From: a virus
Direction: 5' to 3' (one strand)
Virus record (IMG/VR): IMGVR_UViG_3300035698_015115
DNA: 16,857 nucleotides
Position 1 is the first letter of the stretch. Each line of letters starts with the position of its first letter. A program made the position numbers and the translations under genes. The notes beneath the pieces were generated by a model. It saw nothing but the letters and a program-made list of their open reading frames with translations. It was not told the DNA's origin and did no database searches. Below are positions 501 through 13,347 of the stretch, one piece after another.

Positions 501-530
501 GGTTTACATATTCCTGTTTATCATTATATT
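501..530 (+). promoter_or_regulatory. sigma70-type promoter P1 (GGTTTACA -35-like 503-508, 16-nt spacer, TATATT -10 at 525-530)
   Basis: Read directly: ggTTTACAtattcctgtttatcatTATATTaa. It sits 4 nt after the stop of the previous ORF and 20 nt upstream of ligase ATG 550. The same motif recurs four more times in the window. Confidence 0.6.
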
Positions 531-549
531 AATTCAATAGGAATAATAT

Positions 550-2589
550 ATGAAAGATCTTGAAAAGAAAATTCAACGACTTCTCAAGGCCAGCCATTTA
601 TATTACAAGGATGGCTCAAGTCCATTATCAGATTCAGAGTTTGATAAATGGGACGGAGAAGTTAAAGCTTATCTTGAGGAACATCAATCCGATCACCCGT
701 ATCTTCGAAGGGTCGGCGGATCAATTGATAATAACTCACCTTGGGATAAAGTCAAGCACCGCCGTCCACTTGGTAGTTTAAGTAAGGCTCAGGTATTTGA
801 TGAATATCAGGATTGGAGTAAAAAGCACGGATACCCAGTAATTATTCAAGAAAAGCTTGATGGGATATCAATTGATTTAGAATATCGCGACGGGCATTTG
901 GTTGCAGCAATTACTCGCGGCGTTGATGGCATCGGGGAAAACATCTACGAGAATGTCATTAAGATGGGCGGGGCTCCGCCTACTATTAATATTCTTGGCA
1001 TTGTTAATATTCGTGGTGAGATTCTTCTATATCATTCTAAATTTGAAAGCATCAATGATAAGTTAGATGAACATGATCGTTTTAAAAATTCCCGGAATGC
1101 TGCTGCTGGTATGTCCAAGAAACAGGATGGTCCATATACTCATAGTTTGAATATTCAGGTTTATGATATTTTAAATATGGATGAAATTGGGTTTACGACT
1201 GAAATTGAAGCTCTTGATTTTCTTAAAGAAAACGGCTTTGAGACTGTTGCATATGATATCTGTAATACTGAGGTAGAACTCAAAGCCTGGTATGATCATT
1301 ACGTTGAATCTAAACGGGATAGCCTTAACTGGGATATTGACGGTGCAGTTATTAAAACTGATATTTGGATTGATCCAAAAAATGATTGGGATCATCCTAA
1401 GAATAAGATCGCATGGAAGTTTCCACATCAATACGGACAGACGGTTTGTATTGATATTGAGGAATCCTGTAGCGGTGGTCGTATCACGCCTGTAGCCATC
1501 CTTAAACCTCTTGATCTTTGTGGTGTAACTATACAACGCGCCTCATTGGCAAACTGGCCTCTAGCCATTGAATTAGGGATCGGAAAAGGGGCTGAGGTTG
1601 AAATCTCCAGACGAAACGATGTTATTCCTCATGTTGAGTCGGTTTTAGTTAAACCTAAATCAGTTGTTGAACTGCCATCCGAATGTCCAACATGTGGAGC
1701 CGATACAGGCTGGGAACAAAATACCAAAGGTGAAGATTCGGTTTATCTAATCTGCTTAAATCCAGATTGTTCAAGTAAACTTGAAAAGGCGATTTCTAAA
1801 TGGCTGGCTGCTCATAATTGTAAAGGTGTTGGCCCTGAAACAATTAAGCTGCTTGTTGATGAAGGGTTTGTAACCAATCTTATTGATTTTATGTACCTGC
1901 CATATACCGAAGGCAAACAAGAATCATTGCGAGTTTGTGATGGCATGGGCATCAGCAAATTGCAGATCCTAATTAAACAAATTGAGAAGACTGCCAAAAC
2001 AACGATTGTACAATTTATGCATGGTCTCAATTTTGAAGGTATTGGGAGAAGCCGAATTGAAGCTGCTATTGACCATATGTCTAAATCATATGATAAGATT
2101 ACAATCCAGTCCTTTATTGATTTTATCCTATCCCCTGATTTTATCGGAGTTGATAAATTCGGTGATGGATTTATTGAAAAGTTCCGTGGTCAAATTGAAG
2201 ATCGTCGAGCATTGATTGATTGTATGATGACTTTAATTATAATCAAGGATGCAGAAATGGTTGCTAAAAAGACATCCATTTTTGTTGATAAAGTATTCTG
2301 TTTTACTGGGTCTTTTGAAACAATGAAACGGAAAGAAGCAGAAGCTTTTGTAAAAGCTAATGGCGGAGCTATCGGTAGCGCAAATAAAAAGCTATCGTTC
2401 TTGGTATCTAATGATCCCAATAGTTCCTCGAGTAAAACAAAGAAGGCCAATGATCTTGGGATTCCTATTATATCGGAATCTGAGTTTATGAAAATGGCCG
2501 GACTTGATATGCCGAAAGTGGAAGAATCTGAGCCTGTTATTGTTGAAGAACAAGATAAGGATATCTTGACAGACATTAATCTGCTCTAA
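550..2589 (+). CDS. ligA: NAD+-dependent DNA ligase (LigA-type)
   Basis: 679 aa. N-terminal Ia-like domain (HLYYKDGSSPLSDSEFDKW...HPYL). Adenylation motif KLDGISIDLEY (KxDG). RGVDGIGENIYENV nucleotidyltransferase motif. Cys4 zinc finger ECPTCGADTG...CLNPDC. HhH region. C-terminal BRCT domain (VFCFTGSFETMKRKEAEAFVKANGG...LGIPIISESEF). RBS AGGAA 7 nt upstream. Confidence 0.9.
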   Translation: MKDLEKKIQRLLKASHLYYKDGSSPLSDSEFDKWDGEVKAYLEEHQSDHPYLRRVGGSIDNNSPWDKVKHRRPLGSLSKAQVFDEYQDWSKKHGYPVIIQEKLDGISIDLEYRDGHLVAAITRGVDGIGENIYENVIKMGGAPPTINILGIVNIRGEILLYHSKFESINDKLDEHDRFKNSRNAAAGMSKKQDGPYTHSLNIQVYDILNMDEIGFTTEIEALDFLKENGFETVAYDICNTEVELKAWYDHYVESKRDSLNWDIDGAVIKTDIWIDPKNDWDHPKNKIAWKFPHQYGQTVCIDIEESCSGGRITPVAILKPLDLCGVTIQRASLANWPLAIELGIGKGAEVEISRRNDVIPHVESVLVKPKSVVELPSECPTCGADTGWEQNTKGEDSVYLICLNPDCSSKLEKAISKWLAAHNCKGVGPETIKLLVDEGFVTNLIDFMYLPYTEGKQESLRVCDGMGISKLQILIKQIEKTAKTTIVQFMHGLNFEGIGRSRIEAAIDHMSKSYDKITIQSFIDFILSPDFIGVDKFGDGFIEKFRGQIEDRRALIDCMMTLIIIKDAEMVAKKTSIFVDKVFCFTGSFETMKRKEAEAFVKANGGAIGSANKKLSFLVSNDPNSSSSKTKKANDLGIPIISESEFMKMAGLDMPKVEESEPVIVEEQDKDILTDINLL

Positions 2590-2607
2590 ATTAAAGGATT
2601 GGGTTGG

Positions 2608-3132
2608 GTGAAAGTAATTAATTTGTTAGCTGGGCCAGGTGCTGGGAAGTCTACTAATGCCGCAGGCATATTCCATTTGTTAAAGAGCCGTGGGTATTCG
2701 GCTGAGTATGTACAGGAATATGCTAAGGACTTGGTGTGGTCAAAACGTTTTTGGGAAATGAAGAATCAGATTCATGTAACATCAACTCAATACCATCGTA
2801 TGTGGTTACTGAAAGATCAAGTTGATTACCTGATAACTGATTCGCCATTGTTGTTAGGTATTATGTATGTTCCACCTGTTGATTACTTCCCATCATTTCC
2901 AGATTTAATTAAAGAATTATTTGAAGACTTTGAAAATATTAACTTTCTGTTAAAACGGCCAGATATTGAGTATATTGAAGAGGGGCGTTGTCAAGATTTA
3001 ACTCGAGCCCAAAAATTAGATCGGAACATTGAAGAACTACTCAATTTGTTTGAATATCCATACGAAACAATACAATGCTGCAAAACATCAGCCCAATTAA
3101 TAACTAACAAAATTATCCAACAGGAGACATAA
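2608..3132 (+). CDS. P-loop kinase, AAA_28 / NadR ribosylnicotinamide-kinase-like family
   Basis: Walker A GPGAGKST is followed by EYVQEYAKDLVW and a DSP Walker-B-like element, an arrangement reminiscent of the NadR RNK domain (AAA_28). The GTG at 2608 has AAGGA 9 nt upstream. The ORF track starts at TTG 2599. Confidence 0.65.
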   Translation: MKVINLLAGPGAGKSTNAAGIFHLLKSRGYSAEYVQEYAKDLVWSKRFWEMKNQIHVTSTQYHRMWLLKDQVDYLITDSPLLLGIMYVPPVDYFPSFPDLIKELFEDFENINFLLKRPDIEYIEEGRCQDLTRAQKLDRNIEELLNLFEYPYETIQCCKTSAQLITNKIIQQET

Positions 3133-12173: not shown

Positions 12174-12525
12174 ATGCTATATTGGTGTACTACAAGATAA
12201 CGGCGAAGTAAATTATATATCGTGTTCAAATAATGGAAACTTAAGATTTGTTGGATACATTCTTAAGGAATATTATTGGTCAAAGATTTTAACTGACTGC
12301 CTATTAGAACTAGGTAATATTGAAGATATTGGCATCGAGCCTGATGCATGCATATTAGCCAATCCATTAGTTACATTTAGAACAATTGATATGAAAGAAT
12401 ATCTTCAATATGCTGAGGAAAAGTGTAAATATCTATATATCCTTATTGGCAACAATTGGATGTATAAGGCCAAAGAAGATTCAGAATTAAAGAATCTTAA
12501 AGAGACGTTGTGTTCAACATTTTAA
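12163..12525 (+). CDS. hypothetical protein (120 aa)
   Basis: ORF overlapping the phosphoesterase gene by 11 nt. No recognisable motif. Confidence 0.5.
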   Translation: MSSKCYIGVLQDNGEVNYISCSNNGNLRFVGYILKEYYWSKILTDCLLELGNIEDIGIEPDACILANPLVTFRTIDMKEYLQYAEEKCKYLYILIGNNWMYKAKEDSELKNLKETLCSTF

Positions 12526-12561
12526 AGTGAGTCTTCCGCGGTCCTAATTATTGGGGGCGGG

Positions 12562-13317
12562 ATGCGTAAATTGTTCGTGAGCTTGATATTTATTTTAAGC
12601 TTAGTATGTTCAACGTTTGCCCAAGAAGACCGCCTCAAAACAATTCCGTCTCGAATTGTTGGAGACTTCAAAGAATTCTATTCTATAGACACACTCGTCG
12701 ATCTATCTCCGTTTTTAATTACTGGGGCATATTTAGCTAACAGCAATTGGGATGAAGATATTAATGAAAAGTATCAAGAAGATTATAGAAGTTATGATAC
12801 TGATCAATTTTGCGATGATGCAAAAAATCTCGGCGAAGGCAAATACTTAGTTCCCCTTTACATTGTTTCAACATTGGTTGGTGAAATAGATCATTGTGAA
12901 ACAATTGGTAGGTGGGGAGAATTATCATTTCGAGCAACCTTGGTTGGTGCTCCGGCTATGATGTTTGGTCAACGTGCAATTGGGTCAGGTCGCCCTAAAG
13001 ACGGAGATCCTTCAAAATGGCAACCTTTTGACGATAGCAACGGTGTTTCTGGTCATGCATTTATGGGGGCGGTTCCATTTATTACAATGGCTAAGATGAC
13101 TGATGAATGGTGGCTAAAAGGAATCTTTTATACTGTCTCAATGGCCTGCGCTTATACTCGAGTTAATGATGAAGCTCATTATTTGTCTCAAGCAATCCTC
13201 GGTTGGGGTTTTGCATATGTTTCTTGCTCAGCCGTTGATCGTACTGACTCTAGTTGGATCATAACAGCATCTATGGTTGAAGCCCGTCCAGCTATATTAT
13301 TTGTTTATCGTTTTTAG
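12562..13317 (+). CDS. secreted PAP2-superfamily phosphatase-like protein
   Basis: Signal peptide MRKLFVSLIFILSLVCSTFAQ. PAP2-like motifs ...GSGRP, SGHAF (PSGH), and TRVNDEAHYLSQ (SRx5Hx3D-like). Confidence 0.5.
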   Translation: MRKLFVSLIFILSLVCSTFAQEDRLKTIPSRIVGDFKEFYSIDTLVDLSPFLITGAYLANSNWDEDINEKYQEDYRSYDTDQFCDDAKNLGEGKYLVPLYIVSTLVGEIDHCETIGRWGELSFRATLVGAPAMMFGQRAIGSGRPKDGDPSKWQPFDDSNGVSGHAFMGAVPFITMAKMTDEWWLKGIFYTVSMACAYTRVNDEAHYLSQAILGWGFAYVSCSAVDRTDSSWIITASMVEARPAILFVYRF

Positions 13318-13347
13318 GGTTTACAGTCCTCATTAAAACATTATATT
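13318..13347 (+). promoter_or_regulatory. sigma70-type promoter P5 (TTTACA 13320-13325, 16-nt spacer, TATATT 13342-13347)
   Basis: gGGTTTACAgtcctcattaaaacatTATATTaattatagAAAGGAATAAT, 3 nt after the stop at 13317 and 21 nt before ATG 13368. Confidence 0.6.

Follow-up and report, generated by a model that had tools for sequence, protein, structure and literature searches.

The stretch of viral DNA considered here, 16,857 nucleotides (nt) from IMG/VR record IMGVR_UViG_3300035698_015115 and referred to below as the window, is a gene-dense block whose credible genes are all on the + strand, and five of the gaps between these genes hold a copy of one promoter-like sequence. The genes to which a product or family could be assigned, which range from a DNA ligase and a guanylate kinase to a homologue of the major vault protein (MVP), are collected with the other features in Table 1; the remainder of the window is taken up by approximately 18 small orphan open reading frames (ORFs). 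An earlier note on this DNA had placed copies of the sequence at 503 to 530, 3558 to 3585, 8592 to 8620, 11568 to 11595, and 13320 to 13347; all five are present there, on the + strand, and the coordinates are those of the spans TTTACA-N16/17-TATATT. All motif counts refer to the 16.8-kb window. With the full octamer, GGTTTACA-N15-18-TATATT, four matches were obtained, the octamer starting 2 nt earlier in each case (501, 3556, 11566, and 13318). The remaining copy, P3 (8590), reads TATTTACA in place of GGTTTACA and has a spacer of 17 nt, compared with 16 nt in the other four.

This observation is real and highly nonrandom. A mean of 0.03 matches is expected by chance, as judged from 200 dinucleotide-preserving shuffles, none of which gave more than one. 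All five sites are intergenic, in gaps that make up approximately 4% of the window, and no copy was found on its − strand or within its coding sequence, where the earlier note had considered that the motif might prove equally frequent. A two-block weight matrix covering 8 nt around the −35 element and 12 nt around the −10 element gave the five sites scores of 25.8 to 31.9 bits, against 12.9 bits for the best of all other positions on the two strands, and each site still ranked within the top five when it was held out of the matrix. The window is 62% A+T, and a generic sigma-70 scan returned no excess of matches (50, compared with 59.6 in shuffles), a result that could be taken to favor chance matches in AT-rich intergenic DNA that have no function. 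The same result means, however, that a specific family stands out and not AT-richness as such, and five observed sites where 0.03 were expected, together with the weight-matrix scores, effectively refute an origin by chance. The restriction to one strand and to gene boundaries, the identity of the five sites at no fewer than 14 positions, and the recurrence of the design in relatives (see below) argue in the same direction, and we regard this explanation as exceedingly improbable.

The position of the sites is as regular as their sequence. The gaps that hold them measure 50 to 78 nt; TTTACA starts 1 to 18 nt past the preceding stop codon, and TATATT ends 19 to 39 nt before the next start codon, which is preceded by a Shine-Dalgarno (SD) sequence. 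The earlier note had given 2 to 17 nt and 20 to 49 nt for these distances, and both estimates were close. At all five sites the −35 element, TTTACA, matches TTGACA at 5/6 positions, and the −10 element, TATATT, matches TATAAT at 5/6 while keeping A-11 and T-7, so that each site scores 10/12 against the sigma-70 consensus, with spacers of 16, 16, 17, 16, and 16 nt. Conservation extends beyond the hexamers to GG before the −35 element, TT before the −10 element, and AAWT after it. A fixed two-block structure with 16- to 17-bp spacing is a hallmark of sigma-70-family holoenzymes, and the data support the view that the five sites have every sequence property of promoters of this family.

Table 1. 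Genes, promoter-like sites, and terminator located in the window
Feature	Positions	Strand	Details
NAD-dependent DNA ligase	550-2589	+	
P-loop nucleotide kinase	2599-3132	+	
DUF4406 / nucleoside deoxyribosyltransferase-like protein	3134-3556	+	
MVP homologue	3625-6186	+	853 aa
Radical-SAM/SPASM enzyme	~6251-7293	+	phrog_7293
DUF932 protein	8652-9389	+	
Guanylate kinase	10524-11066	+	
Phosphoesterase	11628-12173	+	
PAP2 phosphatase	12562-13317	+	
Apyc1-like metallo-beta-lactamase-fold protein	13519-14382	+	
RlaP-type nucleotidyltransferase	15557-16675	+	
P1	501-534	+	GGTTTACA-N16-TATATT then AATT; 1 nt past stop of ORF 95-499
P2	3556-3592	+	GGTTTACA-N16-TATATT then AAATTGT; upstream of MVP-like gene (start 3625)
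P3	8590-8634	+	TATTTACA-N17-TATATT then CAAT; most divergent copy, 25.8 bits
P4	11566-11602	+	GGTTTACA-N16-TATATT then AAATTGT; upstream of phosphoesterase gene (start 11628)
P5	13318-13366	+	GGTTTACA-N16-TATATT then AATT, then AGGAATAAT (13358-13366); directly after PAP2 gene stop
Degenerate sixth site (candidate)	10290-10328	+	gap before ORF 10340; TATATTAAT at 10320-10328 matches extended -10
Intrinsic terminator	6205-6236	+	11-bp GC-rich stem GGCCGGGCTCC/GGAGCCCGGCC (6205-6230) then CTTTTAT; -25.6 kcal/mol

The two sub-families of copies discerned by the earlier note are genuine. P2 and P4 are identical at 32 of 37 positions (86%; GGTTTACAAsACCA...TCCTTATATTAAATTGT), including 11/16 positions of the spacer, and P1, P3, and P5 have CATTATATT and the block AGGAATAAT in common. 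The shared stretch runs from approximately 37 nt (P2/P4) to approximately 50 nt (P1/P5), and no flanking homology extends from any of the five copies into the adjacent genes. P1 lies 19 nt before the ligase start codon, with AGGAATAAT at 539 to 547, and in both P1 and P5 this block constitutes the SD sequence, 4 to 5 nt before ATG. At P3 the block (8626 to 8634) is unused; it is followed by 20 nt containing a second SD sequence, AAGGAG, and then by the ATG of the DUF932 gene. The first G of P2 doubles as the final base of the upstream stop codon, TAG, and P5 is followed by an ORF of 65 amino acids (13368) and then by the Apyc1-like gene and further genes.

Some sites have peculiarities of their own. 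The P2 spacer contains a perfect 12-nt palindrome, AAGGAATTCCTT (3569 to 3580), which includes an EcoRI site, abuts the −10 box, and could be an operator. In P4, AAATCCT, located in the spacer immediately ahead of the −10 box, can pair with AGGATTT, the SD sequence of the phosphoesterase gene (11585 to 11621; −17.5 kcal/mol), a fold predicted to mask that SD sequence on read-through RNA only; on RNA started at P4 it would stay unmasked. Masking as a property of the whole family was rejected, as a convincing structure was obtained only at P4, even though TCCT occurs in 4/5 spacers. Around P3 (8552 to 8634), TATTCAATT occurs twice, 38 nt apart (~8578 and ~8616), bracketing the −35 element and spacer, and the best non-site match of the weight matrix, that of 12.9 bits, begins nearby at 8552; these repeats may represent a decayed tandem promoter copy or a recombination scar. 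The degenerate sixth candidate includes an AT-rich 11-bp hairpin (10290 to 10316) within which TTTACT lies 21 nt upstream of TATATTAAT. Its −35 element would be 5 nt out of place, and it is possibly, and at best, a weak promoter (TTTATG-N15-TATATT).

According to the earlier note, the copies define the operon structure of the region and no terminators intervene. The second assertion holds for the five promoter gaps, in which no terminator-like hairpins were found, only weak AT-rich pairings; it is untrue of the region as a whole because of the intrinsic terminator at 6205 to 6236, which sits directly after the MVP-like gene, within the P2-P3 interval, and is the one such element interrupting the window. 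The MVP-like gene is thereby flanked by its own predicted promoter and its own terminator. The hairpin also bears on the annotation of the next gene: ATG 6217, mechanically called as the start of the radical-SAM gene, falls in its loop, and since homologues align only from approximately residue 16 to 21 of the longer ORF, the true start is most likely ATG 6251, behind AAAGGA. As to the operon structure, most boundaries do coincide with a copy. P1 would serve the ligase, kinase, and DUF4406 genes; P2 the MVP-like gene, the terminator then closing the unit; P3 the genes from DUF932 through guanylate kinase, to 11549; P4 those from the phosphoesterase through PAP2; and P5 those from the Apyc1-like gene through the nucleotidyltransferase. 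The five-gene block from 6251 to 8575 has no copy, and thus the motif marks most, but not all, of the unit boundaries; this block would be expressed through read-through of the terminator or from a promoter of another class. With a single terminator in 16.8 kb, the five promoters would yield nested, overlapping, codirectional transcripts.

The genes themselves provide some indication of the kind of virus involved. The radical-SAM gene has approximately 3,000 metagenome homologues at an E value of ≤1e-20, with no function assigned, and homologues in 172 phage records, among which T4-like phages of Klebsiella, Enterobacter, and Cronobacter predominate; it is 42 to 44% identical to the genes of T4-like Slopekvirus and related phages, and a gene with which it has 60% identity lies on a 172-kb contig together with those for UvsY and a UvsW-like helicase. 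The other window genes point to assorted large phages, and neither a T4 core gene nor an alt homologue was found within the window. The phage is thus large and virulent, with an affiliation to the T4 group that is unproven, the radical-SAM gene being T4-like but the other genes pointing elsewhere. The MVP homologue resembles the eukaryotic protein over its full length (Pfam MVP shoulder, 1e-26; Vault_3) and aligns colinearly with MVP chains in the PDB (E of ~3e-21; residues 472 to 774 against 468 to 786); the only homologues in phage records are those of three huge uncultured phages (462 to 735 kb), with 41% identity. The Apyc1-like protein, product of the second gene after P5, scores 65.3 bits against the Pfam Anti-Pycsar Apyc1 model, for which the cutoff is 50, and is likely to be an antidefense cyclic-nucleotide phosphodiesterase. 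The adjacent + strand ORFs 7800-8132 and 8135-8575 have a common 51-nt 5′ stretch with 76% identity (N termini, MKMRQGFVSNSSSCSF and MKIRNGFVSNSSSASF) and are probably tandem paralogues. Rfam and tRNA scans of the window were empty, and a tblastn search with ORF 12163-12525 gave no match among phages.

Searches of INPHARED, IMG/VR, the JGI metagenomes, the GTDB genomes, and a set of 5.8 billion proteins brought up no close relative. A megablast comparison of the entire window with 50,697 phage records, exact-protein look-ups, and peptide-pattern scans of IMG/VR and the JGI metagenomes with the ligase alone all returned no match; in profile scans of the GTDB genomes and IMG/VR, no match exceeded 38% identity, and the closest proteins in the 5.8-billion-protein set were 65% (radical-SAM) and 47% (ligase) identical. 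The window is a block from a novel large uncultivated phage. A scan of IMG/VR with the motif itself (GGTTTACA-N16-TATATTAA) returned 82 loci, which we set aside as being at chance level because nearly all were single matches and none had a protein in common with the window.

The design nonetheless recurs in distant relatives found through their proteins. Three of these, L119, L087, and L083, carry TTTAC-N16-TAT(A/T)(A/T)T on the coding strand in their own intergenic gaps. L119, which holds the closest relative of the radical-SAM gene, has GGTTTACT-N16-TATTAT upstream of that gene. In L087, five (G/A)TTTACT-N16/17-TAT(A/C/T)(A/T)T sites follow immediately upon stop codons, and the TAYNAT-type pattern alone gave 3 matches there, compared with 0.14 expected. 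L083, a contig of 206.9 kb, has six copies of tTTTACTTTGAATTTTTCnATGTTATATTATAAT, and its GTTATATTAT box occurs 6 times, against an expectation of 0.25, in each case with a TTTAC-like −35 element upstream. The recurrence of this architecture in independent genomes argues for function and indicates that a T4-style GTTTAC variant of the −35 element is in use in several uncultivated phages that are only distantly related. Not all members of the ligase clade share the design: the other ligase relatives (L088, L090, L091, and L092) have different promoter boxes, for example TTGAAA-N-TGCTATAAT in L091, as would be expected if promoters track the host polymerase. Two further features of these contigs may be recorded. 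In L083, which is of interest at 3110 to 3281 and 7811 to 8605 for this feature and for the sigma-family gene discussed below, a GC-rich hairpin with a U-run lies approximately 40 nt past one promoter copy and ahead of the following gene, a possible attenuator or small RNA, and in L087 a long gap (4318 to 4880) opens with a tRNA-like sequence (GCGGGGTGGAGCAGTCTGGTAGCTCA...).

We consider it likely that the five sites are sigma-70-family promoters, read in all probability by the host housekeeping enzyme right after infection, in the manner of the early promoters of T4; their firing, the sigma factor involved, and the timing are what we infer from sequence and arrangement. Sigma region 4 would bind TTTACA, extended to GGTTTACA, and sigma region 2 would bind TATATT, 16 to 17 bp downstream; transcription is predicted to start approximately 7 nt past the −10 element, at ~537, 3592, 8627, 11602, and 13354, giving leaders of 13 to 33 nt whose 5′ ends fall at the SD sequence or a little ahead of it. 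Large virulent phages express accessory, nucleotide-metabolism, and antidefense genes early, and the gene content of the window (nucleotide metabolism, ligase, and Apyc1-like putative antidefense protein) would fit such expression. Several findings count against this reading. One is the block without a copy described above. The sites also differ from T4 early promoters in lacking a TGn or GT-rich extended −10 element, TATATT being preceded by CAT or CCT in 5/5 window sites and the T4 sites having mostly TGG or TGT there, and apparently in having no consistent A-rich UP element: the 22 nt upstream of the −35 element are 68 to 82% A+T, compared with 62% for the window, but A prevails only in P1 and P2, and P4 and P5 are T-rich. 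The conservation beyond the hexamers, moreover, exceeds the strict need of a housekeeping sigma factor and could reflect another factor, and L083 encodes a sigma-70-family protein of its own, which leaves room for a phage sigma factor.

A sigma or other factor specified by the phage, in place of the host housekeeping enzyme, would account for the conservation of GGTTTACA and TTATATTAAWT past the hexamers, and the protein of L083, which has 264 amino acids and contains sigma-70 regions 2 and 4, adjoins one of the promoter copies of L083. This is, however, the only relative with the design in which a sigma gene was seen, and the hexamers and spacing, at 10/12, are those of housekeeping sigma factors. 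As the window holds no sigma or coactivator gene and the early promoters of T4, which are read by unmodified host polymerase, are equally conserved beyond their hexamers, we consider a factor of this kind to be unlikely. It is also possible, though improbable, that the G-36/T-33 signature shared with T4 marks a need for an injected Alt-like ADP-ribosyltransferase in phages beyond the classical T4 group.

If these sites are early promoters, the motif would provide a ready-made transcription map for an otherwise uncharacterized phage region, marking the accessory genes that are probably made first, including the Apyc1-like gene and that of the vault-protein homologue, and the GTTTAC variant would be an inexpensive means of searching uncultivated phage genomes for early genes. 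Our understanding of the mechanism of phage promoters is unchanged, and in this respect the finding is a fairly ordinary one.

The earlier note had also suggested duplication of promoters or modular shuffling of gene cassettes, for which the closest published analogue is the promoter-early stem-loop (PeSL) elements of coliphages RB49 and phi1 (Arbiol et al. 2010, PMC2839356). Like PeSL elements, the sites are repeated strong sigma-70-like promoters, bounded by an upstream stop codon and a downstream SD sequence and start codon, that occur where accessory and orphan genes abound and fall into sub-families. In contrast to PeSL elements, the defining GC-rich stem-loop terminator, often with polyG/polyC, is absent from all five sites, the conserved stretch is approximately 37 to 50 nt and not approximately 100 nt, and no sign that the copies recombine with one another was obtained. 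With this precedent, the sites might be read as mobile regulatory cassettes of the PeSL kind that also serve as recombination sites for the shuffling of gene blocks, the sub-families representing recent duplications. The 86% identity of P2 and P4, which includes much of the spacer, and the promoter-plus-SD block of P1, P3, and P5, left unused in P3 beside a second SD sequence as at a cassette junction, would fit such a reading. So would the variable gene order in relatives, the radical-SAM gene lying upstream of the ligase gene in L083 and the phosphoesterase and kinase genes upstream of it in L105, and the GGTTTAC promoter that the radical-SAM gene has in L119 and lacks in the window. Against it, none of the five sites has a stable GC-rich stem-loop, the similarity is limited to approximately 37 to 50 nt with no flanking homology, shared function alone could account for most of the similarity, and the relatives are too distant (ligase, ≤47%; radical-SAM, ≤65%) to reveal the boundaries of insertions or deletions; we thus find this reading unlikely. 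The unused P3 block, the L119 promoter, and the near-identical P2 and P4 spacers hint at cassette exchange and are compatible with it, although they do not demonstrate it. We also hold it improbable that the GGTTTACA-N16-TATATT units are self-contained promoter(+SD) cassettes that are mobile, or that recombine, in one lineage of large uncultivated phages as a stem-loop-less counterpart of PeSL elements; were this so, the cassettes would rewire which accessory genes are expressed early.

With canonical sigma-70/sigma-A promoters (TTGACA-N17-TATAAT), the sites have in common two hexamers that each match at 5/6 positions, a 16- to 17-nt spacer, and a location upstream of, and codirectional with, genes; they differ in that the five copies are far more uniform than is usual for host promoters and in that conservation reaches outside the hexamers. 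The early promoters (Pe) of T4 and T4-like phages, on which Miller et al. (2003) are reportedly a source, are a closer comparison, and it was to these that the earlier note had likened the sites. T4-like early promoters have GTTTAC at −36 to −31 with a conserved G at −36, while T at −33 is a variant found in T4 and in phages that have no preference for G there (Nolan et al. 2006, PMC1524935), and those of T4 have been described as UP/−35/TGn/−10 promoters (Hinton 2010, PMC2988021). When the first 50 kb of T4 was scanned for GTTTAC-N16-18-TAnnnT, 13 matches were found on the transcribed strand and 1 on the other, most of the 13 lying in gaps between early genes, with the consensus ..aaagtTGTTTAC(A/T)-N-TGGTAtaAT. 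No T4 late-promoter box, TATAAATA, is present in the window, and the one MotA-box-like match lies inside a gene. The −10 element of the window sites is TATATT followed by AAWT and not TATAAT, and the spacer is 16 nt (17 in P3) in place of the 17 nt of the listed T4 sites; with the missing TGn element and the inconsistent A-richness upstream, these differences set limits to the likeness that the note had proposed. The part of it that stands is the −35 element, GTTTAC at 4/5 sites (G at −36, T at −33) and ATTTAC at the remaining one, and the sites also resemble T4 early promoters in having a −10 element with A-11 and T-7, in lying tight behind the upstream stop codon at intervals of one per few kb, in preceding known early-type genes and orphan ORFs alike, and in the codirectional overlapping transcripts, with few terminators, that they would produce. 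The resemblance to T4 is thus one of the −35 element and not of the whole promoter.

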